NCBI RefSeq assembly: GCF_036588685.1
Contig: NC_086383.1
Location: forward strand, 61,008,001-61,072,000
DNA length: 64,000 bases
From: Mytilus trossulus
Taxonomy: Eukaryota
Direction of reading: 5' to 3'
Shown here: positions 28,919-58,900 of the stretch, one piece after another
Position numbering within the stretch: position 1 is the stretch's first letter
Layout of the letters: every line of letters begins with the position of its first letter
Program-made: the position numbers and the translations under genes
Notes under the pieces: generated by a model
What the model was told of the DNA's origin: nothing
Database searches by the model: none
The model's input: only the letters and a program-made list of their open reading frames with translations

Positions 28919-29101
28919 TTATAAACTAAAATGTTCCCAAATTGAAGGAATTGTCTGCAAAAAATTCATATCTTGGTCTTTCTTATGTATCCATTTGTTG
29001 GCGATCCATTTTGATCCAAAAAATACTGGGCATCCTGCATGTAATGTTGCTTTGTCACCCTGTTCCTCTTTGTCCAAATTTGTAAAAATTAAAGCTGAAC
29101 C
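28919..29101 (-). CDS. P4HA-like terminal coding exon (distal Fe-ligand His and 2-oxoglutarate-binding Lys)
   Basis: GSALIFTNLDKEEQGDKATLHAGCPVFFGSKWIANKWIHKKDQDMNFLQTIPSIWEHFSL*. Confidence 0.92.
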   Translation of the reverse strand, partial: GSALIFTNLDKEEQGDKATLHAGCPVFFGSKWIANKWIHKKDQDMNFLQTIPSIWEHFSL

Positions 29102-32100: not shown

Positions 32101-35100
32101 GAGAAGTAGTATGGATGATCAATCAAAGTACTGAAACTAGTTATTCACATTTTTGGAAGGCATAAACGAGGGCGAAATATACCAAATGGACAGTCAAACT
32201 AATAAATCAAAAATAATCTGAAAATTTCATGGCTAAAAGAGAAAAGGACAGACAACACTAGTACACAAAATACAAGAAAGAAAAATAAACAGTAGTCAGC
32301 ACGATACCCTTCGTATACCGGGGATGATCTGAGGTGCTCCTGAGATCTTACTCCACATGTGGCACTGTCGAAATGCACATTTGTAGCAGAACACATCGGT
32401 ACCGTAATTAAATGGAAGTTTTGAGTAGATATCAAGACTGATTTATAAACAGATCAATAAATAAAAATTTAGACATATACCGAGATGATCGAATGAACGG
32501 CAATGGCGCCTCCACAAAACGTAAATTAAGTAATAAGGTGACATGTAATACTTACGTAAAGTATTATAGTCAAAACCCTGTTTGTTTTAGTTTGAAGATC
32601 ACCAGAAAGCTGCAATATAAATAATCATGCAAACAATATAGGTCCAAGTCAGGGAAATGGCCATAGTTCGTTTCTGTGTGTGTTAAATTTTAATGTTGTG
32701 TCGTAGGTCACTTATATTTCAGCGTTTCCTCACTTTTAGTTTAACCCGTATTTGTTTTTTCTCTATCGATTTATAAATTTCGAACAGCGGTATACTAATT
32801 TTGCCTTTGTTTTATATTTGCTACCCATTTACACATGTTACATACTGTTTTCAAGTTTAAAACTATAAAACTTTGCCTTTTATTGAAATATTTGTCCATT
32901 GTAATTCATTTTTAACGTTACAGATGACGCATTATCATATATTGTACACATATTATATTGTCATTTAAAACAATACGTGTTTGTTTACAAAAATGGTATT
33001 ATAATAAGTCTTTACCTTTAAGCAATATGAAGGTTTTACATGTCAAACATGGCAATGCTTTAAATGCTAAACAATACTACATTTCTACATTGGCTAGAGG
33101 TATAGGGAGAGGGTTGAGATCTCACAAACATGCTAGTCTTGTATTATTTTAATCTTAGTTTCTTGTGTACAATTTGGAAATTAGTATGGCGTTCATTATC
33201 ACTGAACTAATATATATTTGTTTAGGGGCCAGCTGATGGACGCCTCCGGGTGCGGGAATTTCTCGCTACATTTAAGACATGTTGGTGACCTTCTGCTGTT
33301 GTTTTATTCCTATGGTCGGGTTGTTGTCTTTTTGACACATTCCCCATTTCCATTCTCAATTTTATCATGATGATTTACAAGTGCTTTATGAACAAATAAT
33401 AATAAAATATTGGGAGGTCAAGATAACTCTATAAAAACAACATAAAACGATCGGTTTAATCAAGTAAGTAACCGTCCAAAGTTAGGAAAATGTTTTCAAT
33501 TGGTTTGATGTGTTTGAGTTCGATCAGGGACTTTCTGTTTTGAATTTATTTGGGAGTGTATGCCTTTTTGTGCTTCTTCGTTACATTTGTTGTTTTATAG
33601 TGATATTAAGATGATAACACAATATTGACTGCTGTACCCCTATTTTTGACATTTTTACTCTTTGAGTATGTTTGTTTTGTTCATACATCGTTGACAATGT
33701 AATGGAATTTGACGCAACTTTCATACAAGTGAGAGGTTTAGCTAGCTATAAAACCAGGTTCAATCCACCATTTTCTATATAAGAAAATGCCTGTACCAAG
33801 TCAGGAATATGACAGTTGTTATCCATTCGTTTGATGTGTTTGGACATTTGATTTTGCCTTTTGATTTTTGATTTTCCTTGTCGAATATTCCTCGGAGTTT
33901 TTACTTTTTATTCCTTTTTTTTTCTCTCCTCTTTATTTCACTACTTACCTTAACTATTTCGAAAAATTCATATCTTACCAAAGTTTCATCCAGCCAATCA
34001 AAATGTGGCTGAAATTCTCCACCGATACCGTAATTTACAATCTGAATTAAAATAAGCATTTGTATGATAATAAAGATAAGGCATATTTAACAGAAATGCA
34101 TATTTACAAAACGACAATAACAAAATGATACAAGCAATGAAACATGTCGTTTATTAAAATTGAAGGCCAGAATCACAACAACTGATGTAGAGGGAATAAA
34201 ACGGAGAGTTGATAACTCAATTTTTAAATTAGTGTGTGCCAGACAAATAGTAGGACTACATTAGATTCATCTGTGGTGTCCGAATCAAAACTTGGAACTT
34301 TACACGGGGGTCTTGCAACAGTAAGCAAAAAAAAATTGTTTAAAAAAAAAACATAAGTTTTCCCGTTCAATGCAGTTTTAAACTTACACCGAGAGAACGT
34401 TTAAATTTTAAACTAATGATTAACAATAATGTTCGTTGTCATTTCACGGCACTAACGGTGTCGCAAAAATCGTTTGGGTTGCATATCACATCTTCAAATA
34501 AGTCGCCAGTAATATCTATATAAAATTCTATTAGATCCTTCGCCCAGCTATCAACCAAGATAACGGTTACTTCAAAAATACCACCCAGGATGATAATTCA
34601 ATATACCTCAAGCATTCTTTTTCTTATTTATGCGTCCCTTGCTTTCAAAATTTCCAGATTAAAGTTTCCGATCAAGGTAAATCCAGAAAAACCAGTTCGA
34701 ATTCACATTTTATTAAGTTTGGTTTTTAATTTTTATGGAATTACGGAGGCTGCAACTATTTGTTCATTTTTTGTCTTGAAAGGTTTTATCTATCAGCAAA
34801 CATTTCTGAAATTTTGGTTTAAAGTAACAAGGGTTTCAGCTCCCGTGTAACGAACGCACAAAATGTCATGTTATAAAGAAACATTAGATCTACAAATTCT
34901 TTATCACGCGACTACTGTCCAATCATCAACAACCGTAAGATTGTCAAACTTTGATGCGTGTTTTCACTTTATAACTTGTTTTAATAAAAGTTAATGAAGT
35001 ATATACGTCATAGTATGTGTAGGTGAAGCGAGGGATATCAAAGTGATAATCAAACTCCTAAGTCGCAAAGAAAAAAAAAGGAAAACGATCAAAGACAAAA

Positions 35101-38100
35101 AAAGTATAGAATAAACTCATCATAGATACCAGTACTAAATTTAGTATATACGCCAGACGCGCTTTTCGTGTAACAAAAAAATCCATCAGTGACGATCGAA
35201 ACTAAAAAAAGTTTAAAATGCCAAATAAAGTACGAAGTTAAAGAGCATTGATGACCAAAATTCTTAAAAGTTTTGCCAAATACTGCTTAGGTAATCTTTG
35301 CCTGACTTAGACAAGCCTTAGTATTACACACAGTCTGCAAAACTGAACACTGAGCAAAATAAAACAACATTAAAAACTGAATTAATTCCAAATGATTAGG
35401 AAGGGTAAGAAGATTCTCCTCCATATCTAGAACCTGTTGTGTTGCTCATGTGAATAGAATGCTAGTGATATGGATTTTAAAGCTTTCCTCGATATTCTGT
35501 GAAATTCCATCAATATTGATCGTTTTTATAAAAATACTATTGAAAATATAAGCAGGTTTAAGCAATATGGATAAACCTGGTCTAATTTTTTCACTCAATG
35601 TTTAGTTTTGATTTTTTTGTTTTCTGGTATACGTTTTTTCATTGTTTTCGTAGTTTTTCATTGTTTGTAGCGGTTTTCTTTCGAATTATAAAATGCTCTT
35701 TAGATAAGTTCTGCCTCTTTTTCAGAGTTAATATTTGTAATGTTTGGTGTTCCAGTCTTAAATACCTCTATATATTCCGTATTTCGTAATTTATAAGGTA
35801 TATTGGGAATATATGGGAAGATTTTGGTTGTTTAAGTATCATATGAAAGCTTTGGAACTTGGAATCACTGCAGAATCCTTGTTGAAAGTTTTACTTGAAT
35901 AATAAAGAAGCATATGAAAGGAGGGCACATTTGCCCTGTTGTTCAGATCAGAAGTTCCGGTTTTTTAAACTATCACACTTCCGGGAACCAGTACTCTCTA
36001 ATATGCAATTGAAGGTATGTTGATTTTTTCCGCACAAGTCAGGATATTGTACAGTTTTGACATAAAATAACTGCCACTTTATTTTAACTTAAAACAAAGT
36101 AGCCATTAATGCTTGAAATTGCAGAATTAAGCTTAGAAAACAATAGGGGCTATGAATTAGTGGTTTTATAGTTATAAGTATTCAACCTTTTTTGTTTACC
36201 TGCAAGTGGTCCGCTTGTCGAATGTTTGTTCTGAGACCAGTTAGACGTTCTAAACGATCATTAAACTGAATCACATCTGGATCAGTCATATCTTCCATAA
36301 AATTATACCTAAAACAAGAGTCAACAGACTGGAACAGTTAGGGGTTAAAAAAATTATCAAAGGTACCAGGATTATTATTTTGTACGCCAGACTCGACATA
36401 GGTCTCATCAGCGACGCTCAGATCAAAAAAGTTATGAAGCCAAAAAGTACAAAGTTGAAGAACTTTGAGGACCCAAAATTACAAAAATATTGTTCATAAT
36501 ATATCATCTGTGAGTTTATTATCATTTCTGGCTGGCATATCAAATATCATTAATTTAGTGCATAAATTCCAAAATTTAATGTCCATAGAAGTTGGTTTAA
36601 TTTCTGATCTTATTGTGCAATAAGATATAAGAAACCACTTTTTCATTTACCCTATTATTGCTCACCCGTTATAGTGAGGTCATTACTTAGAGTAGTAAAA
36701 ATAAAACTGTACAAGAATAAGAAGATTGTCTCTTTTTTCAATTTGTCAAGTTTCTAATATACATTTGAATCAACTATTAACACTAAAATGGAGGACTTAC
36801 GTCGAGCTAGTTCTTGTACTGGAATCAAGAGGTCTCAAAAGTGAATCATCACCATGATAGATTTTTGATCTTTGTAACTGGAAATATAAAATCAATCATT
36901 AACACTAAAATTGAAGACTTACGTCGAGATAGTTCTTACACTGGAATCAACATGCCTCAATGGTGAATCATCACTTACAACTTTTGATCTTTGTAACTGG
37001 AAATATAGATAATGTGTTTAAATAGACAATTTTTAATAGTCCTTTGTGTATACTATTTGATTACATATTTACTGACCTCTTTTTCGGGTCAATTTGAACT
37101 TCGGTGTGGATGGGTTTTTGGTTTGTATCTTCTTTTTTTAAGGGTTGGTGGTAATATGCGTAACTTATCACATAAAACGTAGAGCTCTTCATCATTTTAT
37201 TTGTTAAAACAGATTGTATTAGTTCTCTTCAAATAAATGCATCGGTGGGTTTTTTTCATTCGGGTAACATAGTAATTTATTTATAAACTTATTAGAACAA
37301 AATGAAGGTGTAATAAGGTTTATCGACACATTGTGGACATTCCGTGGGTACCAATTGCTTCCCTTTAAATAGCAGACTTCATATATTGTTAGAAATGACA
37401 CTTTATGTTGAAACATATTACTTTTATTTCCATGCAATCGATACATTTAAGAGCATGCACCGTAAGAAAAAAGTAATCAAGCCAGAATAAGAATAGATTA
37501 AAACTGAAACCATTTATAGAAATATAATCACAAACCACATTTTCAAAATGTTGTCCAATACTAAAACGGTGGGAAAATGTATATTTCTTTTTTTAATTCT
37601 TTCAAAATGTCAATATTGGTATTTTTAATATTTTCCAATAAAACAATAGATTTACGGATACTTCAGAAAAATCGTTATATTAAGGTGTCAAACTTAAGCC
37701 ATAAGGAATTCAAAATAGGTTTTTCACACAATATTTCAAAGTGTATAATTATATGTTTCAAATGCTTTCTTTTCAAATAGATTAGAGGTATAGGGGGATG
37801 GTTGAGATCTCACAAAAATGTTAAACCCCGCCGCATTTTTGCGCCTGTCCCAAGTCAGGAGCCTCTGGCCTTTGTTAGTCTTGTACTATTTTAATTTTAG
37901 TTTCTTGTGTACAATTTGGAAATTAGTATGGCGTTCATTATCACTGAACTAGTATATATTTGTTTAGGGGCCAGCTGAAGGACACCTCCGGGTGCGGGAA
38001 TTTCTCGCTACATTGAAGACCTGTTGGTGACCTTCTGCTGTTGGGTTTTTTTTTTTTATTTGGTCGGGTTGTTGTTTCTTTGACACATTCCACATTTCCA

Positions 38101-41100
38101 TTCTCAATTTTATGTTCTATTAGAAAAGTGTATCCGTGCAGTGCATCTTGTTCTATCCGTAAGTTCCAGTTTGGAAATTGTGAACAGACATAATTTAGTG
38201 ATTTTGTTCCCCTTGAAATTACCAATTCAAAGAGGTTTTGGTAAAAAGAGGAAAAAAACATGACCTTTTCCATAACAGTTCTTTACCTGGTTTGCAAATC
38301 CTTTCAATTTTTCGAGAAGATTCTGACTAATGATGTCATGGACGACAAGTATCATTGGAGATTTATTAATGTACTCAACTTTGATTGGTTGCTTGAAAAA
38401 AGTTAAGTCTTGAAATCCTAGGTATTTACAAACTCCACCAAAGCGAGTATTCTAAAATAATTGACAAATAAATCTTGAAACATTGCTTGTTTAAATAAAA
38501 ACTTATCGGATTTTGTCTAATAATTAATTCGTTTCTGTGTATGTTACATTTTAATGTTGTGTTTCGGTTGTGTCGTTGTTCTCCTCTTATATTTGATACG
38601 TTTCCGTCAGTTTTAGTTTGTAACCCTGATTTTTTTCCTATCGATTTATGAGTTTCGGACAGCGGTATACTACTGTTGCCTTATTCGATTTAAAAACATT
38701 AATTTGTATCTTTAAAGTTGGGATAACAATAAAAACAAATAACGATCTTAAATGACACAAAATAAAATTAGGCATTTAATACATTAATGTCTATCAAAAG
38801 CCAATTCTGAAACAAAAAATCAGTGTATATATGTATTGTTTAACATTCATTTAAAAAACAACGCCAAAAGATTACGTTTGTTATGTATATACAATAGTTT
38901 TAAATTCTTCCTTTTAAAATTGTTACACGATGATGACTGTTGTGTCCGTATTTTGACTATTTTATTTATTTTGTCTGTTTAGTTAACGCATCATTGTAAA
39001 TATAACAGAATTTGATGAGACTGCCATCAAAGTGAGAGGGTTAGTGATATAAAACCAGGTTTAATCCACCATTTTCTACATTTGAAAATGCCTGTACCAA
39101 GTCAGGAATATGACAGTTCTTGTCCATTCTTTTTTTATGTGTTTTACTATTTGATTTTCCCATGTGATTATGGAATTTCCGAATTGATTTTCCTCTAAGT
39201 TCAGTATTTTTGCGATTTTACTTTTTAATGATAAATCGGGAGAATCATTCATTTGTGCTGGGTTTTTCAGCTTATGCATGTTTGTGCAAAAAGAAAGATT
39301 TTTTATCATCCTGTTTCGAGGCCTGCATAAGGTTTTTTTTCAAAGCTACGTTTAGTTTTTAACATACCCTTGTCAGACATGTATTTTCATATCTCTTCGT
39401 GAAGTTTGCATTTCTACTAAATTCTATCCCATAATACATCATGGAATTGTTTTTAACCATTGACTGAAATTCTGCAACTTCTGTTGTGTCTAAATCTAAA
39501 ACGACACGGATCCGTTACTTCCTGTTTATTTATTTTTTATTCTGAGGTGGGTGATAGGATATGTCAAAATGTAAAGAAAACGGAATAACACTAACATTTT
39601 TTTCATTCCAACTTTTTTTTCATCACGGCAATTGATGTAAAAAATTGAAAGCAACACGTTTATTAATTTCCTGCGTCCGAAACGCTTTTCTTGGATTTAC
39701 CTTCACCAAGAACACTCAAAGCCAAACATTTAAAATCCGAAGATATATAAGTACCGAAACCGTTGAAGAGCTATCTGTCAAAAATACAAAAAATAAATGG
39801 CCAAATTTATCTAGAGCCAACTTAGCCTGAAAAAGTTGAAACCTTAGTTTCTTAATTTCAAAATTTATAAACGGACTATTTTAGTAAAGTTTGTTATATC
39901 ATGTCAGTACCGAAGAACTGACTAGTGAGCTGATGATACCCTCGGGGACTGATAGTCCACCAGCAGAAGTATCGTAATTTCGATGATGGTAGATGCAATT
40001 TGGATGTAACAATTTTTTTCATTGGCTAAAAGTTGCCGTCAAATACACAGTTGACCAAGCGTAACTAAGATAGGACCCGCCATTTGTAATTGATTGAATC
40101 AACAAATGTTCGAATACTACTATTTAATCAAAAATAAAACAACACCTACTTCGAATTTGCCGTTCTAATGTAATTTTATCCGAACTTGAAGCGTACATGT
40201 AACGACTTAACCTCCAGTTTGTAAGTTTACATTTGTACATGTATGACGTCACGTTTAGCAATGACGTCTTTGTGCAAAAATCATTCGTGAAGTTTCGCGA
40301 ATTTTTTTCTATTTGTCAAATTTAGACATTTTTTCAAAGTTTTATCGTATTTTATCTTTTGTAATGCATTAGAATCGTAAAAGAAGTACTGTAGTTGAAG
40401 AGTTGCCACCGTCAATTTTGATTTGACGGTCGCAAATCTCCGTTTTACTGTCTCCGCTGTGCATCGCCAGTAAAAAAACGTTGAAGAGATGATACTACCA
40501 AAATGGACCTTTTGTCCGACCATCTCAATTGCAGTTAAAAACTATTTTCTTTAGAGACGGGCCTCATTAGTCGTGTTTTAATGTCGTTTTTTTTTCTTTC
40601 TATTTGTGACATTTGTACCTCTTGTGTCTGTTTGTTTTGTTCGAACATCATTTTTTAATATAATAAAATTTGAAAATTCTGTCATACAAGTGAGGTTTGG
40701 CTAGCTACAAAATCAGGTTCAATCCGTCATTTTCTACATGATTAAATGCATGTACGAGTCAGGAAAATGACAGTTGTTATCCATTCGTGTTTGAGCATTT
40801 GATTTTGTAATTTGGTTAGGGACTTTCCATTTTGAATTTTCCTCGTAGTTTAGGATTTTTGGGATTTTACTTTTTTCTTTAACTAATTCTATAGACTGTC
40901 AACACTCAGGTTGAATATTCAAATACGGGATGTTGTTTAACTGTAATATTTATTGACTCATCATATCTACAGTAGAGGCGTGTTCATTTGAAAAATTACG
41001 TATACCATCTTTTACTCATATTCATAAACACTTTACATAAACATAACATGCCAGCATTTTCGATATTTTTTTTACTTACTAAAATTTTCCAGTCTATTAG

Positions 41101-44100
41101 TTAATAGTTGCATCCTTGTTCGTATTCTGTCTAATCGATCCTATAAATAAAGCATTGTCTGATGTACAATATTTGTCGTTTTTTTTTGTGTAATTTATAC
41201 GTCTTTTTCGTTTCTCGTTTTTAATATAGATAAGACCGTTGGTTTTCCCGTTTGAATGGTTTTACACTAGTAATTTATGGGCACTTTATAGCTTGTTGTT
41301 CGGTTTGAGCCAAGGCTTCGTGTTGAAGGCCGTACATTGACCTATAATGGTTTACTTTTATAAATTGTTATTTGGATGGAGATTTGACTCATTTGCACTC
41401 ATACCACCTCTTCCTATATTTAATATTGTCTCCATTTAAGCACCTATGATCACCCCAGCTTTAGTTTTCTATGTTTTGTCTTGTGTCCTATTATTTGTCT
41501 GTTTTTTTATTGATTTTTTAGCAATGATGTTGTCAGTTTATTTTCTATCTATGAGTTTGGCTCTCTCTCTGGTATCTTTCGTCTCTCTTTTAAAAAAAAA
41601 AATTATAACATTTTTTTATTTTTCATCTCGTATTTTGTCAATGTTTCTGATGAAGGTCGCATGATATTTTTTCTGCTTCTTCCATTGTAGAGTTGAACAT
41701 CAACTATTAATAGCTAAGTCTTATTGAATTATTGAATTCATTAAATATATGGTTGTGTTTGCTTTTATTGTTATTAATTGTTCCCGTTGTTTCGTTGTTT
41801 TCCCCTTAAAGTTGATGTGTTTTTCTCGGTCTTGATATGTTATATGGATTTTGTTTTACAGTTAAACAACATCCGGGATTCAAATATTCAACCTATGTGC
41901 TGACAGGCTATAGAATAAGTACAAGAAGAAAATAAAATCACAAAATATACTAAACTCCGAGGAATATTCAAAACGCATAGTCCCTAATCAAATGACAAAA
42001 TCAAATAATGCACCACATCAAACGAATTGACAACAACTGTCATATTCCTGACTTAGTACAGACATTTCCAAATTTAGAAAATGGTGGATTGAACCTGGTT
42101 TTATAATTGATTAATGGCTATTGTACAGCGGTGTACTACTGTAGCTTTTTTTTTAACGTAATACTGAATCACCTGATATCCAATTCGGAAAATTGTGAAA
42201 AGATTTTTATTCTTTTTTTTCTCCATTGATAGCAGCAATACTTTGATAGTGCTCTCTCTCTTACTTGTTATGTTAACCTAAAAGCAATTTCAGTGACGAT
42301 ACATACGTTTTTAATTTGCATTAATTCCGAATACATTCAATGCAGCAGTTTTGATGTTAGAAATAAACTCATCATAGATACCAGAACTGAATTTAGTATA
42401 TACGCCAGACGCGCGTTTCGTCTGCAAGAGATTCATCAGTGACGCTCGAATCCCAAAAAGTTAAAAAGGCCAAATAAAGTACGAAGTTGAAGAGCAATGA
42501 GGTCCAAAATTACTAAAGGTTTTTAAAGATAGCAGCAATACTTTGATAGTGCTCTCTCTCTTACTTGTTATGTTAACCTAAAAGCAATTTCAGTGACGAT
42601 ACATACGTTTTTAATTTGCATTAATTCCGAATACATTCAATGCAGCAGTTTTGATGTTAGAAATAAACTCATCATAGATACCAGGACTGAATTTAGTATA
42701 TACGCCAGACGCGCGTTTCGTCTGCAAGAGATTCATCAGTGACGCTCGAATCCCAAAAAGTTAAAAAGGACAAATAAAGTACGAAGTTGAAGAGCAATGA
42801 GGTCCAAAATTACTAAAGGTTTTTAAAGAAAATGGTACATTCACACTGTCCAGGACCTAGCATTTAAATTATTCCTTCGAAAGGGACCTAAATATCATCT
42901 ACTGTCAATTATTAATCGGAATGAGTGTCATTGGACCATTCACGATTCACTCCCAATTCAGAGTATAAAATGGAGAAAGTGAGAAAGAGCCTACAAATAA
43001 TTCTTAGATTCTTGTATTTCATTGTTTAAACGAATTTGAAAAAAAAGATATTCATACTTTTTCAGAACATTTTACTCCAAAAATAGAAGCCTTATTTCTC
43101 GTATTAATCATGAACTTTTGAAAGAACTTGGCAGGAATATGTTCCCCGGCTTATAAGGTTGCCACAAATATTATTATTGCCGGACCTTATCAAAATAGGA
43201 AAGAGAACAAAAATATGATCGATTGAGAAAAAATAATCGTTCATGATATCGGGTGTATTGAGATTCGTTTGTTTTCGTGGATACCAATTGGTCGTTTCAG
43301 AAGCGTACACCAAAGCGGTTTGATTGGTTTAAAACTTCATAAACAATGGAAATTCAACCAATGATGTATCGTTATTTTCACTTTGGGGTACGAACAAGGA
43401 AATTACCCATGATGCTTTAGATTTTGAAACGGGCAATTATCGTGCATCAAGAAATCATTGTATACACTTGATTTCAATGATTTCTTAATGCACGATAATT
43501 GCCCGTTTCAAAATCTAAAGCATCATGGGTAATTTCATTGTTGTTTTTCCTGAGTTTGCTAACGAGCCAATAGAAAATGTGTTCTTTCTTAAACAAATGA
43601 ATTCGTGGTTCACTTTAACCCACGAAATTAACGAAAATCAGTTAAATGAAGAACGTTACTCCTCTAAACATAGTCTGATGATTCATTACACAATGAACAT
43701 TGACAACATAAATAAGAAAACTTACTTGTCTTTTAATTTCTGTTATGAATTCATTTACATCTGCTAAGAATTCCTTTGCTTTACCGGAATTCAAATGTTT
43801 GATCTTATCTACTGATGTCTGCATCCATTGTAAAGCTATTCTTGTGTATCCTGTCTCGTAGACAAACTTACCGATGTCATAACAATCGTATGCTGAAGAA
43901 TAAAAGCAAATAATGTTAAAGGGCGTGTTTTTCAACAGACTGTCGGCATTCCAAGGGGAACAAACTGTGCACCTCTACTTGCCGACTTGTTTCTTTATTA
44001 TTATGAGGCTGATTTCATGCAGGAACTTCTTAGAAAGAAATATAAGAAGTAAGCAATATCCTTTAACTCTACTTTCCGCTATATAGACGATGTTCTTTCA

Positions 44101-47100
44101 CTAAACAATTCAAAATTTGGTGACTATGTAGAACGCATCTATCCCATCGAACTAGAGATAAAGGATACTACATAATATACAGTTAATTCGGCTTCATATC
44201 TTGACTTACATTTAGAAATAGACAATGAGGGTCTGTTGAAAACAAAATTTTACGACAAAAGAGATCATTTCAGCTTTCCCATTCTGAACTTTCCATTTCT
44301 AAGTAGCAACATTCTAGCAGCACCTGCATACGGGGTATATATCTCCCATACGATATACCCGCGCTTGCATTTCCTATCATGATTTTCTTGATAGAGGGTT
44401 GCTGCTTACAAGGTAGCTCTTAAACCAAGAGTTCCAAATGGTGAAGTTGAAATCATCCCTTCGTATATATTACAGATGCCATCACGAGTTGGTTGACCGT
44501 TATGGTATTACCGTTTCACAAATGATATCGGATATGTTCCTCACGTCGTAACTACAATCCCCTTCATTTTCATGAATGTGACCTACCGAATTAGACTATT
44601 TACCGGATTTGTCATCACATAAGCAAAACACGACTGGTGCCACATGTGGAGCAGATCTGCTTACCCTTCCGGAGCACCTGAGATCACCCCTAGTTTTTGG
44701 TGGGGTTCGTGTTGTTTATTCTTTAGTTTTCTATGTTGTGTCAAATGTACTATTGTTTTTTCTGTTTGTCTTTTTCATTTTTAGCCAAGGCGTTGTCAGT
44801 TAGTTTTAGATTTATGAGTTTGACTGTCCCTTTGGTATCTTTCGTTCCTCTTTTAAAGAAATATTCCTTATTTTCGTCGATTTGATATGTAACTAATTGA
44901 AGTGATTACCAAGATAAACTTCCTTTGTGATTCTTCTCATTTTTCAACAACTATCTAAATAAGGTATATTCTCTCCTCAAATGTGAGTCAAGTGTTTTAT
45001 TGTAAGTATGCATTATGAAGAATGTAAAAGATTGATAATGAAATGTTCATTCTTATTTGTGTATTTCTGGTTAAGAAATTTAAACTTTCTATAGTAGTTA
45101 TTGATCTTCTTATTTTATCCATTGGCAAGCAATTGTTTAAGTCATTTTGTTTAAGTCAAAATGCCTGTACCAGGTTAGGAATATGACAGTTGTTATCCAT
45201 TAGTTTGATGTGTTTGGGCTTTTGATTTTGCCTTTTGATTTTGTATTTTCCTTTTTGACGTGTCTTTTGCGGTCAGTTCATTGCTGTACAGATATTTCAC
45301 TTTTCTCAGTGTATGCTTAGACTATTCAGATTCCTTTTTATTCTGTTCAAAACAACATCATACTATACATTGATATAATCATAATTATAAATTAAATGTT
45401 AACAAATGGGAAAAAATAAGGCTTTTTTACCTCAGGAATAGATTGCCTTAGCGGTATTTGACAAAACTTTTAGGAATTTTTGGTCCTCAATGCTCCTAAA
45501 CTTCATACTCTAGTTGGCCTATTAATCATTTTTTTATTCGAGCGTCGCTGATGAGTCTTTTTTTAGACAAAACGCGCATCTGGCGGAATTATTAAATTTT
45601 AATCATGGTACCTATGATGAGTTTATTTGTCTCAAAATCTACTGCACAGTGATGAATCGACTTTAAGCGAATTGTCTAAACAGTTTCCAATTTACTGTAA
45701 GCGAATTGTCTAAACAGTTTCCAATTTACTGCAAGCGAATTGTCTAAACAGTTTCCAATTTACTGTAAGCGAATTGTCTAAACAGTTTCCAATTTACCGC
45801 AATTGATAAGTTTGAATATCGACTAAAAGACTAAACTCGACTGAATTGTTGATTTTAAGACTTTTCAGAAGATGATCTAACAAAATGACCATTTAAGACT
45901 AGTTATTATTAACTATTGAAATGTCAATTATACATTTCCCTTTCAGTCTTGTATAATGGGTTTGAATACCTACCACTTAAAACTGGAACTTGTATTCCTA
46001 GTACATTTCCGCTTGCCATCTCTGGAGGTGTAACATTATATGTGTTCTGAAGCCTGGTGAACGATGTAAGAACGCCTTTCAGATCAACTTCTCCTGGTAA
46101 CTTGTACTTAAATGTTGCTTGAAACTCTGAAATTATGGAATAAAAAGTATATGTTGTATGATCAAGGACATTCGGTCCCCGATAGTATCACCAATAAGAA
46201 TTCAGTACATTCAGAGGACTAATAGATAAGATAAGATAAGATAAATACGTTTATTGCAATAAGCACAATTATGCTATAGCACATTTAAATAACAACATTA
46301 TCATGTGTAAGCAACATGAATTTATGTTAATGCATATGTATAAGAAAATGCAGAGAACAGTCATAATTAACAATATGAACATTTTGTTGATAAAAAAGAC
46401 AATTAGATACATAAACTACGTTAATATGAAAGTTCTGAGTTTCCAACTTTCACGCAAAAAACACATCAAATTGTAAATAACAGTTTTTGTTTGAACTTGT
46501 AGTAGTGAATACAGTTTGTTGATATTTGGCCGTGTATGATAATAGTTTGAGAAGTATTTAAGTCTATACTGTCTATATGCTGGACAAACCATAATAAAAT
46601 GATATTCATTCTCTATACATTGCATAGTACAACATTTACAAATTCTATCCTCCCTTCGTTGTTTTATGTAACGACCAGTTTCAATATTTAGTTTTAATAA
46701 ACCAAATCTTAATAAAGACAACATTTTAACATTGATATTTTTCGATATATATTGTTCCATCTTAAAATCTGTTTTTATCATTTTGTACAATATTAGTTTT
46801 TCAGAGCTCTCTACAGACTCACGCCAGCTCTGATAAAATTGATCTAACAAACGTTCATTCAAATATATCAAATTTTACATTAATATTCTCTTGTGTATAC
46901 CATAAATAATTAAATCCAAGTTGAAAAAGTAAATTACGAACATTTGTGGCCCAATTTTCTTTACCATTATAACAGTCAGCAACCAGAACTTGATATATTT
47001 CATATACAATATCTGGTTTCTTGTTTATAATATTAACCCAGTATTTCAACAACTTTTGTTTCCTAGTAACATACATAGGTAAATGACCAAGATCGCCAAT

Positions 47101-50100
47101 AGTACAACAGACAGGCGTGTTTTGGGGTACTTTTAAAACAAATCAACAAAATCTATTATGTACAGTTTCGATTTCTTTTGCATGATGAAAACCCAATACT
47201 TCAGAGGCGTAGTTTAAAATAGACGAAACTAGACTGTCAAACATAGCACATTGCTGTTCTGGTGAAATATAAGTAGATCTTAATGAATTCAACAATGCTG
47301 CAAGCGCTCTACTGCCCTGTCCCGCTAGGCGTTTTTGGGTTTGTTGAAATTTGCCGTTGTAATGTAGAAGAACTCCAAGGTATACATAGTGATCGACTAC
47401 TTTTAGTTCCGTATTGTCATCATGCCATGAATGGTTTACTCTTTGCCATCCTTTACGAAAAACTACAACTTCTGTTTTATCCTTATTAACCCCAATTTTC
47501 CATTTTGTACAGTAGATGAATAATTTATCTAAAAGAAACTGAAGAGCTTCTGGTGTTTTTCCAAATAGCACAGTATCATCAGCGAATAACAACAAGTATA
47601 TCAAATATCCAGTTAGGCTTATGTAATCACTAGTTCTATTATCATTCATACGTAGATCATCAGCAATGTCATTAATAAAAAATATGAAAAGCAGAGGAGA
47701 CAAGGGTTCGCCTTGTTTTACACCAATATTATTGGAAAAAACATCTGAAAGTAATCCATCACATTTAACGCGAATGTTCACAGTTGCATATACTGACTGC
47801 ACCATGGAAACAAACTTGCTACTTATTCCACTATTAAAAAGCTTATACCAAAGTATGCGACGCTCAACATTGTCAAAAGCCTTACAAAAGTCCACGAATG
47901 CTGAATACAGTTTTTCTTTTTGCGACAAGGTTGTTGATATTATTCCATGAAGAATAAAAACAGCGTCAACAGTTGATTTTTTGCGGCGAAATCCAAACTG
48001 GTTTGCTAAAAGAATCTCATTATCTTCGGCCCAACAAAGTAAACGATTATTCAAAATTGAACTAAAAATCTTTGAAAATACACTGATCAATATAATTGGC
48101 CTATAGTTATTAGGGTTTAAAAGATACCCTTTCTTTGGTACAGGTATAACAATTCCTTCTATCCAATTATCGGGGTAAATACTAAATTCAAATAGTTAAT
48201 TAAACAAAACTGTTAAAAATGTTGAAAAAAGCTGAGAATCTGATAAAAATATTTCTCCACTGATTTCATCTGTTCCTGTACTTTTACCACGCTTTAACTT
48301 TTTAATTGCAGATTCAATTTCCGATTCAGTAAATTCCTTATCTAAATCGTCTATGTGTAGATCTTCCGAACGAATTTTGTCTATTAATGTTTTAACTTCT
48401 TCTGATAAATCACCAGGTTCCGCACCAAGAAAGTTTTTAAAATGTTCAAAAATGTCTTTTGCATCGGCCGCGCATCTAGATCGACCCTTAGGTCTAACTT
48501 TTGACCAGAATTCTCTGGGATTCACTTTAGCCAATCGCCTTAGCTCCTGTCCACGTGCGCGTTTGTATCGAGTTTTCGCTTTTCGTTTAACTTTGTTGTA
48601 TTCGTTTCTTGCTGTCACGTATAATTGTCTATTGGGACTGTTTGGGTAGCGCTGAAAACGGTTCCGTGCTTGGTGAAATTCACTTCTAAACAGTTTACAT
48701 GAGTGATCGAACCAATCATTTTCACTAAGTTTATGTTTACTCAAATGTTTTTTAACAGATGTTTTACCAAAAACATTAAGCGCACATTTAAATATAACAT
48801 CGGTAATCACATTTACGGCGTTGTTCGCACTTTCATTGTCATTTATGTTGTTTACTAGTTCCAACATATCAGTTTGTTTCTCCAGTAATGCTTGCGTGAA
48901 ATCGTTAACTTTCTCATTATCCCACTTTATATATGTATAATGGTTTGAAGAATGTTCCTCATTATACGTTCGATTTGTCTGAATTTCATAAAATAAAGGC
49001 GAATGGTCAGAAAATTCATTATGTTCCAGAACTTAAAAAATTCTCAACCAATTTATAATCACATGGACAAGTTAACCGATAATCATTCACACTTCTTCCG
49101 TTTGAAGTACAACAAGTAAATTGTCCAGCCAGATCGTTTCGTAATCTACCATTACATATAGTTAAACCCGTGTTATGACACATTTGGACAAGCTTTCGAC
49201 CAAACTTATTTACTGTTGTATCCTTAGAACATCTTGGCGGTGTAATGGGATTTTCATCATGCACTACACTACTCACATATCTATCTGAATGAGCAAAACC
49301 TAGCCAATCATCTAGTAACCCAACTCTACAAATAAAATCACCACAAACAAGTAGGCTTCCCTTTTCTCTATACTCAAAAACAATATTTTCTATTAATTCA
49401 AAAAAGTCACAGTCATTTACATTATAATATGAGTACTTCTCATGGGGTATGTACACAAAACATATGTAAATATCAGTATCATTATGAAAAAAAAATCCTT
49501 TTTTAACTTGATCAATAAAATACCATTTTCAATTTCCTTGACTATTTCAATACCTTTCATAATATATGGTTTACAGTAAAAACATATTCCACCCTCGTTT
49601 CTGACCCCTATATTATTACATATACCAAATGACGATAGATTTTCAAAATTATTTAAGTGTGGCTTATAACTGCCCTTTAACCATGATTCACAAAGAAATA
49701 ATAAATCATAATCATTAATAAAATTAAGAAAGTCATTGTCATCGATACAAGAAATAATACCATGAATGTTCCAACTTAAACACTTGATGTTTCGAGAATG
49801 CTCTCTGCGTGTATCCTATGGACCAACATATTCTTTACCTGCTACGAACAGTTTGTCTCTCACGAAATATGCCTTTGTATTGTTTGCTTTAAGTGCTCTA
49901 AGTTTCGGCAGTAGATTTTTTCTTCTTTTCAGAATTTCAACTGGCAATTGTTCGGATATACCAAAATTAGTGTCTTTAAGATTAACAGCGCTTTTACGGA
50001 CTTCTTGTTTCTGAAAATAGTTTGAAACTTCACCAATAACGGGCGGATTCTGTCCCCCTCTTTTCCAATTCTGGAAGCACTTTTTATGTTTATTTCCCTC

Positions 50101-52405
50101 TCATTTTCTACTATATTCAAATTTTCTTTGAAAAAAATATGTAAGTTATTCACACAGTCTTCACCTTCCACCTCGGGTATATTATAAAAAACAAGATTGT
50201 TTTTCATTTCTTTCATATGTATGTCAATCATAAGTTCTTCTTTTATTTTAACGCTTTCGTCTTTCACCTTTTTTCGAGTCAGGTCGATTTCATTCTTTTG
50301 TTCAGATATTTGTTTATTAAAACGTGTTACATTTTCTGATTGTGATTTGATTTTATCATTTACTTCTTTAATTTTAGTGTCAAGTTTTAATATTTTTTTT
50401 TCTCTGATCGTCGAAGCAATCACTGAAATGTTGAGTAGCATGTTCAACCTCCCCCAATCTTTGACTTAAAATCTGTGTTTCATATTCAACTTTAATCACT
50501 TTACTATTCATATTAATGTTCAACCTACAAATTTTAAGGCTAGTTGAAGACCAATACTATTGCTTTTACACGCAATCAAGAGACAAATTTTAATACAACA
50601 TTTTATATCTTACAACAAAACGTTAAAGCAAATACATAAAATAAAATATAATAGCATTCTGTGTGTGTTTACTTTTTCTCAGACAATTACTCTCTTATAT
50701 AAATCTATCTGCCAAAAAACGTTTTGTGGCTCAAATAATACTGTGTTAGACGGGAAATCAAATTAAACTTTTGAGAGATTGTTGTAAATTATATGAAACA
50801 AGAATGTGTCCCTAGTGCACTGATGACCCATCCGCACTATCATTTTCTATAATCAGTAGACCGTGAAAATGGGGTAAAAATATTTAGTTTGGCATTAAAA
50901 TTAGAATGATCATATCACAGGGAACATGTGTACTAAGTTTCAGATTGATTTGACTTCAACTTCATAAAAAAAAATACCTTGACCAAAAACTTTAACTTGA
51001 AACGGGACAGACGGACGAACGGAAAACATAATGCCCATCTTTTGGGAATAAAAACGACCTCCGACAGTCAAATTAACTAAAGCAAATGACAGTACACAAC
51101 GTCTACGTTTTGAAATGTTCTTACCCTTTAGGTGTCTGTCAGCTTTTAGGTTGTTGATTATTTGAGTAATAGAGTACGAGGCATCACTGATAGTTTTAGC
51201 ATACAGGTACATAGACACGGGATTAGGTGGTACTGGTTTTGTTCCATTTAACTCTTCTGTCAGCTGACTTCTAATGCTTAATGATATTCTGAAAGCATAG
51301 ATAAATAACTTTTGATACTCTAAAGCATCAATAAATAACTTTATGAAAGTCAAATAAATATCTTTGTGATATTCTGAAAGCACAACTAAATAACACTGAG
51401 ATATTTTGAAAGTACAAATAATTAATTTTTGATAATCTGAAAGCACAAATGAATAACATTTTTGATATCCTGAAAGCACAAATAAATAACTTTTTAATAT
51501 TCTGGAAGCACAAATAAATAACTTTTTGATAATCTGAAAGCACAAATAGATAAGTTAAACTTTATGTTATTCTGAATGCAAAAACAAATAACTTTTTGAT
51601 ATCCTGAAAGCACAAATAAATAATATCTTTTTGATAATACGTAGGCACAAATAATTATTTTTTTAATATTCTGAAAGCAAAATAAATAACTTTTTCATAT
51701 TTCGAAAGCACAAAAAGATAACTTTTTAATATTCTGAAAGCACAAAAAAATAAATATTTTATATTCTGAAAGCAAATAACTTTTTGATTTATATTAAGAA
51801 ATAGAAAACGTTTTGATATCCCAAAGCATACATAAATAACTTTTTTATATCCTGAAAGCACAAATAAATAATAACTTTTTGATATTATGTAAGCACACAT
51901 AAATAACTTTTTGATATTCTGAATTCACACATGAATAACTTTTTGGTATCATGAAAGCACAAATAAATAACTTTTTGATATTCTGTAAGCACATATAAAT
52001 AACTTTTTTATATTCTGAAAGAAAAAAAGGAAATAACTTTTTGATATTCCGAAAGCACAAATAAATAAGATTTGATATTATGAAAGCACTAGTAAATAAC
52101 TTTTTGATTTGTCTTAATACATAGACAAAGTTTTGGTATCCCGAAGCAAACATAAATAACTTTTTGATATTCTGAAAGCACACATGTTTTTCGTGTAAAA
52201 CAACATAAAGAGATCACATGTATTACCTTTTTAAAACTTCAATCTTTAATTCCTCTTGTCTTATGTATTTATCCATATTTTTCACCAATTTCACGGCAGT
52301 TTTTTTGGATTCCTGAAAATTTTCCGTACACGTGAACAAATGCCCCAGAACACAATATAAATCAAATAAAAAGACGAAAGAAATCCACATTTTGTCCACT
52401 ATCAT
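28919..52405 (-). CDS. P4HA: Prolyl 4-hydroxylase subunit alpha-like (collagen P4H family), complete CDS of 13 coding exons, ~522 aa
   Basis: Exons: 52227-52405 (signal peptide); 51125-51288 (NPVSMYLYAK); 45974-46126 (RLQNTYNV); 43726-43892 (AYDCYDIG..QWM); 41080-41140; 39368-39495 (YENTC); 38287-38451 (PIKVE..SPMILVVHDII); 36923-36996 or 36801-36877; 36200-36308 (RLERLTGL..HLQ); 33979-34041 (IVNYGIGGEFQPHFD); 32556-32609 (NRVLTIILY); 30626-30694 (LSDVEVGGSTVFP); 28919-29101 (TLHAGCPVFFGSKWIANKWIH, stop). All phases match and the total is 1569 nt. Confidence 0.93.
30428..30548 (-). mobile_element. Retrozyme family 1 fragment (GAAA mutated to GGAA)
   Basis: CGCCAGACGCGCGTTCCGTTTACATAAGACTCATCAGTGACG. 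Confidence 0.75.
30832..32050. mobile_element. Non-autonomous hAT DNA transposon with 8-bp target-site duplication
   Basis: TIRs TAGGGATGTCAA / TTGCCATCCCTA (Ac-like TAGGGATG end). Perfect ATTATTTC direct repeats at 30824-30831 and 32051-32058. Clustered subterminal TACTCG/CGAGTA motifs. No transposase ORF. Confidence 0.9.
33480..33910 (+). repeat. Dispersed repeat family A (representative copy)
   Basis: AAAATGCCTGTACCAAGTCAGGAATATGACAGTT..GATTTTACTTT. Also at 1-150, 7711-7955(-), 26545-26615, 38910-39225, 40600-40875, 41930-42105(-), 45157-45255, 59673-59970(-) and 63462-63630(-). Confidence 0.85.
35112..35325 (-). mobile_element. Retrozyme family 1 fragment, degenerate
   Basis: Colinear with 42362-42520 and the reverse complement of 6450-6655. 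Confidence 0.72.
36354..36485 (-). mobile_element. Retrozyme family 1 fragment with a deletion in the ribozyme core
   Basis: TACGCCAGACTCGACATAGGTCTCATCAGCGACGCTC with the shared flanks. Confidence 0.7.
36801..36877 (-). CDS. P4HA-like alternative exon 8b (tandem duplicate of 8a)
   Basis: ttccag|LQRSKIYHGDDSLLRPLDSSTRTSST|gtaagt; 77 nt, phase 0 to 2, open frame, intact splice sites. Confidence 0.82.
36923..36996 (-). CDS. P4HA-like alternative exon 8a
   Basis: ttccag|LQRSKVVSDDSPLRHVDSSVRTIST|gtaagt; 74 nt, phase 0 to 2. Same length as the paralog exon at 63898-63971. Confidence 0.85.
37780..38112 (+). repeat. Dispersed repeat family C (representative copy)
   Basis: TAGAGGTATAGGGGGA.GGTTGAGATCTC..CCATTCTCAATTTTAT. 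Also at 33090-33365 and partially at 2229-2310. Confidence 0.85.
39630..39975 (-). mobile_element. Retrozyme-like repeat family 2 with degenerate hammerhead
   Basis: Minus strand GTGTTC-TTGGTGA-aggtaaatccaa-GAAA-AGCGTT-TC-GGACGC at 39673-39716. Related decayed cores at ~34670-34700 and 53665-53692 (CCTGATGAAG..GAAAC). Confidence 0.6.
42228..42829 (-). repeat. Near-perfect 300-bp tandem duplication, each unit carrying a type I hammerhead
   Basis: Units start at 42228 and 42528 with two substitutions seen between them. Minus-strand CGTCA-CTGATGA-ATCT(cttgc)AGAC-GAAA-CGCGCG-TC-TGGCG at 42403-42444 and 42703-42744. Confidence 0.93.
43399..43536. repeat. Long palindrome: 62-bp arms, 1 mismatch, 14-nt loop
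   Basis: 43399-43460 is the reverse complement of 43475-43536. Confidence 0.93.
43929..44855 (+). mobile_element. 5'-truncated Penelope-like element, antisense in P4HA intron 3
   Basis: FQQTVGIPRGTNCAPLLADLFLYYYE..FRYIDDVLSLNN..FYDKRDHFSF, plus a 3' UTR homologous to 25258-26085. Confidence 0.88.
45418..45628 (+). mobile_element. Retrozyme family 1 fragment (GAAA mutated to AAAA)
   Basis: GCGTCGCTGATGAGTCTTTTTTTAGACAAAACGCGCATCTGGCG; colinear with 6450-6655. Confidence 0.75.
45665..45800. repeat. Minisatellite, 34 bp x 4
   Basis: AAGCGAATTGTCTAAACAGTTTCCAATTTACTGT, nearly identical units with no spacers. Confidence 0.95.
46223..50465 (-). mobile_element. Near-full-length inactivated non-LTR retrotransposon (ORF1 + APE-RT ORF2; RTEX/Crack-like, clade uncertain) in P4HA intron 2
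   Basis: ORF1 has a coiled coil and NNLVFYNIPE..RIG..RPLLVKF. The APE endonuclease has CLSWNIHG and VCGDF. The RT has QFGFR, AFVDFCKAFD, GVKQGEPLSPLLF, LLFADD and YLGV. The C-terminus has IETGRY..RICKCC..ENEYHFIMVC. The 3' end has AATAAA followed by a (TCTTA)n tail at 46223-46256. ORFs are broken by stops (47143, 48196) and frameshifts. Confidence 0.93.
50797..51055 (+). mobile_element. HINE-like element, second copy
   Basis: Colinear with 10636-10933. Confidence 0.6.
51282..52183 (-). repeat. Minisatellite, ~31-bp unit x ~28, filling P4HA intron 1
   Basis: Unit on the minus strand GTTATTTATTTGTGCTTTCAG|AATATCAAAAA. The last unit is the real exon-2 acceptor. Confidence 0.93.
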
Positions 52406-54374
52406 CTTTATACGTACACTCTTCCGCTAAATAAATCTGACAAAAATATGATTGATTTTTATATTACATGTAATACACTTCTGCGTGTTCGACCATCACA
52501 CTTACATTCACCTCTATGAAGGTACTTAGTACAACCAGTCTTGTAAAAGTTTTAAACACATTTTAACAAATATCGAATACAAACCGGTATATATCAAACT
52601 ATGAAATTATGATATATTTTGGCTATGATTTGTCGTTTCGGTCTTTTCTGTTATAAGGTTTAACAGAGATACAAATATTTTATAGTCAGTAGAAAAATTG
52701 ACAATAAATGATATATTAATTTGATAATAATTTTAACCACATTTTAACAAATATTTATCAAACTATACACTTATGATATATTTTGACCTTGATTTTTTGC
52801 TTCTGTTATTAAGTCTTTTCTGTTATAAGGTTTAACAGAGATATAAACATATATAGTCTGTATAAAAAATTAAAATTGAATAAATAATTAAAATGTCTAT
52901 GGAAATTCTAGATATGATTTAAAACTCGGCACAGACGGACTTTATCAAGATATCACGAAGGTTCAGACGAATAAAGCTTCAGGAAATATTGGTATTTTAA
53001 ATATTACGAATTATTACTTAGAAAATTTATACATTTACAGATATTATTCATCCTGATTAAATTTTCAAATTAGTTGATTTGCTTGGCAGTGACATGGGAA
53101 TTCACCATCTGCCAATTGTCTTTGATAAAAATGGGGGAAATTGGTTTTATTTATTTTGGTCAATAATTACATATTTGAAAATTCTAATGCTATTTCACAA
53201 TGATAATTAAAAAGGGATGCTCAAAAGTACAGAGGAAATACGGAAGATTATAAATGTGCCTCTAGCTCAGTTGATGATAAATAGAAATTTTAATATTAGT
53301 TCTGCGTTTTAAATATAGGAATACAATTTAACCCTTTTATTATTTCCTTTCTAAAAAAAAAAGGTTCCATGTTATATCTTTAAAATTTTTAAAAAAAAAT
53401 ATTTCCTTTCAATGTTTTGCGAATTAATCTATTTATTAATGCATTTGCATTGCATGTTTTATCTGGGTGGTATGATTTGTCCACTTTTGTTTAAAAAGAC
53501 CACTACGATAAAGTCGAAGTATTGAAAATAGTATTACACACAAACTACTTGTATCAATCGATCTTTCACATATAATTAGTTTTACTATGAATATTTAACA
53601 TTTGATTTTAAAAAAAAAAAAAAAAAAAAAATAAAAAAATACCTGTCAACAATTTTAAATTAAGCGTACCTGATGAAGATAATACCAGAAACAGTAGAAA
53701 TACACATGGAATATAGTCAATCGGCAAACTTCGGTACATTCCGCTACCCTACATGAGATGTGCCGATTTGGAGTTTGATAATTAAATATAACAGATTATT
53801 TCGTTACTAAATGTGTAAACTTATTTTGTGTAATCTAAATAAAGTATGTATCAGGATAACTTGTAATGAAATCATGCAAATCTGTTAACCTATATATGGT
53901 ATATTTCAAAGAACAGTTTTGGACACATCAGAACTATTTTACATAGTATCTCATTTTAATATCCGAAATACAGCTCTGTATTTTTCGATAATTGTAGGTA
54001 AATTTCCTGGTAGAAAACATATAAACACAAAACATTAAAAAAAAAAAAAAGACTAACAGGAAAACCGATTATTTTTTTTTTCGGAATCATTTATATTTTA
54101 TATTTATCAAATATATCTTATTCTCTTTTTCTTCGCAATATGCTCATAGTTTACAATAAATATATATCCTTGACTATATTGTGTCACTCAATTCAGGAAC
54201 CAACAGGTATAAAGTCCCTGGTAATAATCTATAATTAAATCTCAATGTCAGATGTTTGCCTGAGGATTGTGTTCTCCTTGTATGTATCATGTACAACATA
54301 CATGTTTTGAACATCTATATGTACAATATTTATCACTAATAAGAAATTTCTTTAAATGTATAATTTAAATCAAT

Positions 54375-55984: not shown

Positions 55985-58900
55985 ATGATGTCTGTTCGTA
56001 AATTATTAGTATCCGTAATAATAACCGTGAATATTTTCTCTTGTATTGGAATATTATTTACGTGCACAAAACATTTTGAAGATTCTAAGAGAACAGTATA
56101 TAATCTTTCGGAATACATAGAATCTTTGAACGGGTATAACGAATTGAAAAGGTAAATAAATAATTATACATTTTCAGTTTAAACATATTTATTTGAAGTG
56201 GATTGGGAAAGAAGTTTTGCAACTTGAATTAATCCTTTTCTACTTTGCGGGTACGAGTGCTGCCTTGTAGCGGCATTAGCCTACTCTTTTTCGAAATCTA
56301 CAAGGGTGTCTTTAACATATATGGCTCTCTCTTAACACGGGTTAGCCATTTATCGTCCCCTTCCGACGGACAATCATCGTTTCCTTAAAATTATACTCGC
56401 AAATGGTGTCAAGGAAGAGCCGTTAATTGAGTTCCTGAAATTTTCATCCAGAACGGGAATCGAACCAGGAATCTTTGTGTTAGTAGTCCGATGCATTTGT
56501 AGTTTATATATTTGCTTTAGTCTAATAAACCCTTAGCGTTGCACATGTTGAGGTAACCATTGGCAGATTTATGGTGTGGCTCGAGGTTCAAAAACTTATT
56601 TTAAGCAAGTATTGAAACATTATTATTAGCATGAAATAGCTATACTCAGATTTTATCAATTACACCTAGAAAAACTGCTAAATTTTTGAACAATGCATTT
56701 AATAAAAGAAAAAACTTTTTGTATAGGAACAATCAAACATAAATTCTAACTTTGTCCGCTGTTAAATGATTATTATTTTTATGTATAAATGTTTAAAGTG
56801 ACTTATAGGTCCAAAGGGCCGGGTGTTGATACATGTAATTACAACTGCTTATTGAAATATTGTATATTGTCATAAAACACATGTCACTATAATAAATAAT
56901 TTGGTATTGGTATTATACACCCCGCCCCCTCTTGTTTATCTTTTAATTAGATCCTGGATCCGCCCCTTATAACTGCAGCTATTCAAACGCAAGTGCTTAT
57001 CTAACTTACAATGTAGATACAGATGAAACTAACAGCGAAATGATGGGGGTTTAGGCCAAAAATGTTCAATAACAGAATTGTTTCACATTGGTTTCAGCGG
57101 CGGATCCATGGAGGGGGGTTCCGTTTTTGCGTATCTTTTGTTAGAATTATAGAAAATTAAGGGTTAGTTCCCCTTATTTGTGGTCATTTGTTAATTACTG
57201 GTGCATTTAAACAAAACTTTTTTGTAAAATACTAGAACAGGAAAATGATAAGTAGATTGTTATTTATATTTGTGCAACATTATTCAATTTAAACATAAGT
57301 TAATATCCTTTCGAGTTGGTTTTTGATTTTCAGGTTCTCACGTGACCACTGCATACTTACCTTTTTAAAGTCAAACAGATAAATAATAATCTTTGAAAAA
57401 GACACGATATAAACTACATTTCGGCAAAATATTGAAACAATTTCGGACGTTTTTTGATAATTCCGATTTTTTACTGGTCAACAAGCTTAAGAGTAGCAAT
57501 GTAATTTAATATATTTTTGTTTACAGAATTTCAGAGAGATTAAGGGATCAAATCTCAGAGGAATGTAACAGAAACACAACAACACTTCCGAATCCTGTGT
57601 CTATGTACCTTTACGCTAAAACAGTCAACGAAGCTTTAAGTCCAATCAGAGATACAATAAATAAGACAGACGATGTTTTAATAAAAGGTAATTATTTTTA
57701 AAACGATGTGGTTATAATATGAAAATCAATGGTTTTCATTCCCGTCCAAACTTTGTAAGTGCCAAAATCAGACCATTTTTTTATGAATTTTTGCAAGTAG
57801 TTTTCATAAAAAGACCCCCCAAAAAAGTAGATCCCACTCTCCGTCTCATTTTTTGAATGAAAAAAAAATCTTAATAAATTGATTGTGTTTGACATTTGAA
57901 TGATTGGGTATGGCGATGAGACAAATTTCTATCATATTGACAGCATGTGTTAAATTTGTTTGATCGTCGAAGTATATCGGCAGATTCCGCTACCTTATTG
58001 TATCAGATTTCTAGAAGTCATTCTGCTTCATAATAAATCAATCGGCAAATCTCGGCAGATTATATTTATGCATGCCGAAGTGTGCCGAATGAGCCGTTGT
58101 CTAAAAGTTGTATATACTTAACCTGTATTGATAACTCCCAAATCATTAAGCTCAAATCGGTGCTACGGGTTCGTTTTGAGCATGCAGAATATTGTGCAAT
58201 TTTGTTCTTTGATGCATGGTATCGCTGTGACCGTGAGATCAAACACTTCAACGTACAAAACACAGCACAAGCAATTTTGCTGACACCTTGTTCATTTTCA
58301 TATACATTTTAGTAAATGAAAACACTTTTTGATACCTAAACAGAAAAGGCTACAAGTAACCATTCTACAGAATTATTTAGCAAAATTTTATATTTTTTAC
58401 AGAAACAATGATATCATTCATTTCAAATTTACCGACGGGAGCAGACGTAGAAGGTGTTATACTGTCATTCGTTAAGTTACAAAACACGTACAACGTATCG
58501 TCACGTGACATGGCTAGTGGTTACATACTTGGAATTAAAGTGCCAACTTTAACAGGTAAAATTACATTATTTGTGTTTAACAAATGGGTAATTGTTTGTA
58601 TTCTTTCATTATTTCAAATGTTAAGAGTGACATAGCTATATCTTTATTCAGAGATCTACCAGTATAACCAAAGAGAACTCTTAAATGAAAGGTCGGCATG
58701 CCTTTTCTAAATTTATTTGTGTCGTTTGATTGCTGTCTCGTTGATGCATTCCCGAAATATCACCATGCAACTGATATATACCGTTGATAAATCCAACATA
58801 AAAAAAACCGGGAAATAACTGTCATGTACCTGATCCAGTAAGTTGGCGTAGCGAATGCTCTCAAAAATGCGCCATATTGTAATCATTCTTTTAAACTACC

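Follow-up and report, generated by a model that had tools for sequence, protein, structure and literature searches.

The window analyzed here, 64,000 nucleotides of Mytilus trossulus DNA, carries on its minus strand a gene for the collagen-modifying enzyme prolyl 4-hydroxylase alpha (P4HA-like; LOC134690524). The whole gene (28917..52405) comprises 13 coding exons; a 13-exon model in which all introns are of the GT..AG type reproduced the 521-aa isoform exactly, and the host protein contains the Pfam domains P4Ha_N and 2OG-FeII_Oxy_3. Exon 1 (52227..52505, minus strand) has its NCBI coding start at 52405 and is transcribed from at least 52505, the 5′ reach of RNA contigs being 52482 in sequencing run X5 and 52505 in X6. 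Exon 2 (51125..51288, minus strand; 164 nt) lies within the P4Ha_N domain and showed a 100% match to the M. trossulus LOC134690524 proteins. Between the two lies intron 1 (51289..52226, minus strand; 938 nt, GT..AG, phase 2). A paralog (P0006) is encoded on the plus strand from 55985, divergently oriented relative to the host gene, and its homologous intron 1/exon 2 junction (57507..57538, plus strand) is present as a single copy.

An earlier note on this DNA had proposed that intron 1 is nearly all a tandem array of about 28 copies of the exon 2 acceptor, and this was borne out. TRF reported an array at 51282..52182 (minus strand for the gene; period 32, 28.6 copies, 72% matches, score 790), the only one of its kind within the window, which takes up 894 of the 938 nt of the intron (95%); the donor and 44 nt of intron 1 lie beyond it (52183..52226, minus strand). 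The units are arranged head-to-tail (TRF and unit alignment), and each corresponds to the last 20 nt of intron 1 plus the first 12 nt of exon 2. The unit of about 31 bp with about seven exon bases given in the earlier note was thus somewhat short: the period is 32 and the exon part about 12 nt, with the window's own exon altered at positions 8 and 9. GC content is 23% in the array versus 38% in exon 2. Segmentation yielded 27 upstream units between a truncated first unit and a last unit ending at the used AG, with a mean identity of 86% to the consensus and 75% between pairs of units; derived bases were weakly shared between units at offsets 3, 10 and 11 (in one full allele). Among the 28 upstream unit ends, 15 carry CAG (“roughly half,” as had been stated), one TAG and one AAG, and 11 have lost the AG, so that AG is kept in 17 and YAG in 16. 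Two further readings of the intron were rejected. Taken as a decayed copy, the first 34 intron nt resembled the unit no more than shuffled sequences did (P = 0.69). On sequence inspection, units are also poor candidates for microexons, as the bases around the GT that follows 11 exon-like bases make for a weak donor, and 11 nt would break the frame.

The consensus unit matched the used junction at 28 of 32 positions (20 intron and 12 exon bases) and the homologous junction of the paralog at 24 of 32 (15/20 intron, 9/12 coding exon bases), compared with 9 to 19 of 32 for 17 other junctions of the host gene and the paralog. When the 64-kb window was scanned on both strands with 32 rotations of the unit, eight matches of ≥23/32 were found outside the array, all of them representing the paralog junction. 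Of the first 12 bases of the window's exon 2, 10 are identical to the unit and two, at 51281 and 51280, are not; two of three exon 2 haplotypes in DNA run X8 (organism C) are changed at both positions and match the unit at 12/12. These changes convert an L codon to K, giving the exon start I-S-K-S. At the start of exon 2, the protein reads RISKS in M. californianus and ISLS in M. trossulus and M. edulis; the residue at the K/L site is S in the more distant P0005 and E in the paralog. Because the window holds no other match than the paralog junction, and because two of the three X8 haplotypes match all 12 exon bases, the proposal that the unit is a copy of the ancestral intron 1/exon 2 junction (3′ splice site plus exon start) holds. 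With M. californianus as the outgroup to the edulis complex, the array would preserve an older exon start than does the host gene itself. We infer that copying ran from the exon to the array; alternatively, the array may have back-converted the exon start in some lineages.

Alleles of the array were also recovered from other organisms. Pieces listed for DNA run X2 (organism B) comprised stretches of 219, 148 and 289 nt with 0, 0 and 1 differences to the window, respectively, as well as a 279-nt stretch of a diverged allele with 25 differences and 11 gap positions. In the pieces listed for X8, the array adjoins exon 2 and its units match window units out of order. None of the pieces listed for either run spanned the whole array. 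The array is shared between organisms, old and polymorphic in sequence. In JGI metagenomes, none of 592 candidate relatives of exon 2 was confirmed and a 24-nt stretch of the unit had no exact match, blanks that are uninformative.

To establish which acceptor is used, 20 sequencing runs were available, none recorded as RNA and three guessed to be RNA; two of these three (X5 and X6) were compared with the DNA runs X2 and X8. X5 and X6 yielded two records each, one from the paralog and one from the host gene. In both runs, the host-gene contig joined 52227 directly to 51288 (a skip of 938 nt, GT..AG on the gene strand) and linked 51125 to the opening bases of exon 3, while depth across 51338-52185 was zero. 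Since neither DNA run showed the 52227/51288 joint, X5 and X6 were regarded as spliced RNA. The 3′ splice site used is therefore that of the last unit (51289..51308, minus strand), and the same joint is found in both M. trossulus NCBI isoforms (P0001 and P0002), drawn from a protein database that would omit NMD forms. Gene models of M. edulis and M. californianus have different N-termini ahead of exon 2 and are thus uninformative on this junction. The RNA evidence consists of two contigs with mean depths of 8.8 and 4.3 from one study, in which minor or NMD-degraded forms are dropped; accordingly, the authentic site is kept as the major form in 2/2 RNA-like runs and 2/2 NCBI isoforms, and no RNA contig of upstream-copy splicing was seen in the two shallow runs, where only the major form is visible. 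Tabulated as the earlier note had suggested, although from shallow contigs instead of long reads, the acceptor joined to the donor was 51288 in both contig sets, which fits its picture of a field of decoy acceptors skipped by the spliceosome, with only the last copy used. Rare leakage into upstream acceptors may be hidden by NMD.

Splicing to an upstream copy would rarely leave the protein readable. Five of the 16 upstream YAG sites are in frame and only one of them (51501) is also free of stops; the other 15 of 16 sites lead to premature stops 1,186 to 2,029 nt ahead of the last junction. The open frame reported to reach from intron 1 into exon 2 is present (50940-51554), and the associated suggestion that upstream acceptors could add in-frame inserts stands for the one unit acceptor that lies in it, 51501, but not for the others. 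Use of this acceptor would insert 213 nt (51289..51501, minus strand), or 71 low-complexity residues, inside P4Ha_N; the insert is absent from the RNA contigs. Shuffles of unit order often gave an open site (at least one open in-frame acceptor in 933 of 3,000; mean 0.43, observed 1) and the consensus unit is without a stop in all frames, so the open frame needs no special cause. Selection for open frames was rejected on the same grounds, the single open site lying within the shuffle range.

The array is probably a minisatellite specific to this locus, made of the gene's own junction and, in the assembled RNA, removed whole by splicing to the last copy; it is likely a neutral passenger, with the last copy likely favored because it alone precedes the real exon body. 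Its history would have begun with a 32-nt duplication across the junction, via slippage or unequal exchange, followed by expansion of the array through the same processes and by decay, and both expansion and decay would precede the divergence of haplotypes in organisms A to C. As 32 is not a multiple of 3 and other splicing would destroy the protein, only alleles splicing to the last copy would have been tolerated. Exon definition would pick this site: its acceptor is paired with an exon 2 donor 164 nt away, compared with exon lengths of 195 to 1,047 nt if upstream copies were used, and in upstream copies the exon part ends after 12 bases and gives way to U-rich intron sequence. The last site would perhaps be helped by ranking among the stronger copies, and NMD would remove the products of any occasional leak. 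In classic experiments with duplicated splice sites, adjacent exon sequence reportedly plays a role. The last copy most likely wins through exon definition, perhaps with help from the strength of the site, and its intrinsic strength may be no less important than its exon context. Neutrality allows, and does not require, persistence of the array across diverged haplotypes. Masking of upstream acceptors by RNA structure was ruled out, as the predicted fold of the intron RNA was less stable than 20 of 20 shuffles (z = +3.1).

A different weighting of the same elements, in which selection has eroded slightly deleterious upstream copies and the last site thereby owes its use chiefly to intrinsic strength and not to exon context, appears unlikely. 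When 3′ splice-site strength was scored for each unit, as had been proposed, the used site ranked second of 17 in all five small weight matrices, as this reading would expect, but it was outscored by 52014, and the matrices were built from 11 to 18 true acceptors. Upstream, 13 to 16 of the 16 YAG sites equaled or exceeded the score of the window's weakest true acceptor, and 1 to 4 that of the median. The AG is broken in 11 of 27 units and is the second most frequently broken of 31 dinucleotides in the unit, exceeding a flat rate (P = 0.046); however, 8.1 to 8.4 losses are expected from the decay of A and G elsewhere in the unit (P = 0.13 to 0.19), and the excess of AG-destroying mutations for which the earlier note had proposed a test is not seen once a higher decay of G is allowed for. 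Even these P values are generous, since the units share a history and are not independent. In three of the four units closest to the used site the AG or the C is missing, again in favor of this reading, yet AG loss showed no positional trend along the array (P = 0.23) and six consecutive units (18-23) retain CAG. It is far less likely still that the unit is a dispersed AT-rich satellite that inserted into the intron and whose likeness to the junction is fortuitous or the result of its having converted the junction. Stretches of one unit length that match other loci, seen as loose ends at 52000-52041 (X2 and X8) and 51734-51771 (X2), would be in its favor, as would a summed contig depth, which is not copy number, of up to 346 in the array in X8 (range 0 to 346, with exons at 23 to 88; in X2, 0.2 to 33 with exons at about 3 to 15). 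Nonetheless, a true dispersed repeat nearby (51020-51072) reaches summed contig depths of 650 and 4,048, array and splice site are in phase, and the array-free junction of the paralog matches the unit in register, coding bases included. The earlier note had named a genome-wide satellite unrelated to the junction as the finding that would count against its origin claim; within the 64-kb window, neither a multi-unit nor a single look-alike was found beyond the paralog junction.

The array could also act as a tunable attenuator, whereby a sizeable share of transcripts uses upstream copies, meets a premature stop and enters NMD, with array length or allele setting the P4H dose. Such a role would draw on the 16 upstream YAG sites that are left, nearly all at least as strong as the weakest true acceptor, on the stops incurred at 15 of them well ahead of the last junction, on alleles that differ in unit sequence, and on the capacity of NMD to hide the products from contigs. 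Precedents for VNTR-linked splicing are described in humans (PMC5954066, PMC10078293), and pseudo-donors of CBS and 6-16 are partly used (PMC1557585). We nevertheless think it improbable: neither RNA-like run contained an array-derived contig, a premature stop is the default outcome of any out-of-frame unit, upstream AGs are not conserved above background but decay at or above the background rate (11/27 units), and the amphioxus cases discussed below gave no aberrant mRNA (PMC3087553, PMC3902484). The claim that the array is a source of many isoforms and NMD products in a ratio set by copy number accordingly found no support in the two shallow sets of RNA contigs, in AG loss or in the frames of the YAG sites, of which one in 16 is open. 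The boldest version, a repeat rheostat on the acceptor side in which the 16 upstream acceptors take a real share of splicing that is visible when NMD is blocked, array alleles set P4H dose, 51501 yields an isoform with the 71-residue insert, and all this segregates in wild mussels, seems to us just as improbable as the attenuator.

In favor of the neutral, junction-built minisatellite, arrays of this kind have a precedent in amphioxus, where minisatellite-like duplications of intron/exon boundaries have been termed “mirages” (PMC3087553). Mirages occur at Adh3, the globin genes BflGb6 and BflGb9, troponin C and PGBD5, have units of 10 to 160 bp of which many, not all, keep the splice signal, and leave splicing undisturbed (PMC3087553, PMC3902484). 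The Mytilus array is a mirage minisatellite, and so belongs to a class already described: like the amphioxus cases, it consists of tandem copies across an intron/exon boundary with normal splicing, its 32-nt unit falls within their size range, and the splice dinucleotide is kept in many but not all units (17 of 28 upstream ends). The closest parallel is BflGb6, in which the 3′ end of an intron and the start of exon 2 are likewise repeated. Against these likenesses, the host is a mollusc and not a cephalochordate, BflGb6 has 3 to 6 copies compared with about 28 here occupying 95% of the intron, and amphioxus units share 81 to 100% pairwise identity compared with 75% in Mytilus, where the array would be older and more decayed. 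The amphioxus Adh3 mirage is reportedly subject to somatic instability. No molluscan mirage was found in the limited collection of literature searched. The array thus adds a clear-cut case from a mollusc to a repeat class already known, offers a candidate record of an exon-start state older than the gene's own and provides, with 16 near-identical silent acceptors in one natural intron, a substrate for studying 3′ splice site choice; it would gain greater importance only if upstream use were substantial and allele-dependent.

Preference for one copy of a reiterated splice site is also described in humans. For CBS 844ins68, PMC2630376 reports that the distal copy of a duplicated intron/exon junction is strongly favored, giving normal mRNA; the sites are referred to as donors in that text, although the title of the study cited for them concerns 3′ splice site selection. 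That variant comprises two 68-bp copies and is a recent polymorphism, in contrast to the 28 copies of 32 bp in Mytilus. On the donor side, splice sites reiterated through intronic minisatellites resemble the Mytilus array in layout. At the F7 IVS7 VNTR (37 bp), only the exon-adjacent site is used and the next intact one takes over when it is mutated, and across the VNTRs covered in PMC1557585, the exon-adjacent copy is used either alone (F7, LMNB2, PDGF) or together with its nearest neighbors (CBS intron 13, interferon-inducible 6-16). In these human arrays it is the 5′ splice site that is reiterated, as against the 3′ splice site in Mytilus, and the Mytilus units are far less uniform.

Exon 8 of the P4HA-like host gene (LOC134690524) is present as a tandem duplicate (36801-36996, minus strand) within a repeat of ~120 bp at 85% identity. 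Copy A (36996-36923, minus; 74 nt) and copy B (36877-36801, minus; 77 nt) are separated by 45 nt, and each has AG..GT flanks, an open frame and the same phase; inclusion of both is predicted to shift the frame. The M. trossulus gene models use copy B; in tblastn searches, the corresponding proteins of M. edulis and M. californianus match copy A. Exons 9a and 9b of human P4HA1 are mutually exclusive (PMC11868403). Mussel copies A and B are a candidate pair of the same kind, and the human pair probably lies at the equivalent position. The neighboring exon 7 (38287-38451, minus; 165 nt, in frame) is included in NCBI isoform X1 and missing from isoform X2 (P0001).

Other local duplications within or close to the host gene were found at 42228-42829 (two copies of 300 bp, 99% identity), at 45660-45797 (4.1 copies of 34 bp, 97%) and just upstream of host-gene exon 1 at 52588-52876 (a 120-bp pair, 78%), none of which spans a modelled coding splice site. 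Intron 2 of the host gene harbors a near-complete LINE-like element (∼46400-50500) on the minus strand, i.e., the gene strand, with pieces resembling ORF1 and an endonuclease as well as an RVT_1 domain (E = 4e-33), its coding parts being split over several frames.

The P4HA paralog (protein P0006) lies at 55985-63971 on the plus strand, divergent to the host gene, with eight exons of closely matching sizes within the window; its intron 1 (1375 nt) lacks the minisatellite array. Both RNA-like runs (X5 and X6) carry the paralog transcript, seen as loose ends. Minus-strand exons at 2453-2857 and 16505-16720 belong to a gene other than the host; one piece resembles a small-GTPase/Roc-like P-loop, based on weak Pfam matches to Arf and Roc (Roc being under its cut-off), and another was called ankyrin-like by eye. 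In the DNA run X8, three distinct haplotypes of host-gene exon 2 (51125-51288) occur at similar depth (~20 each), which may reflect a pooled sample, a hybrid or a gene duplicate.
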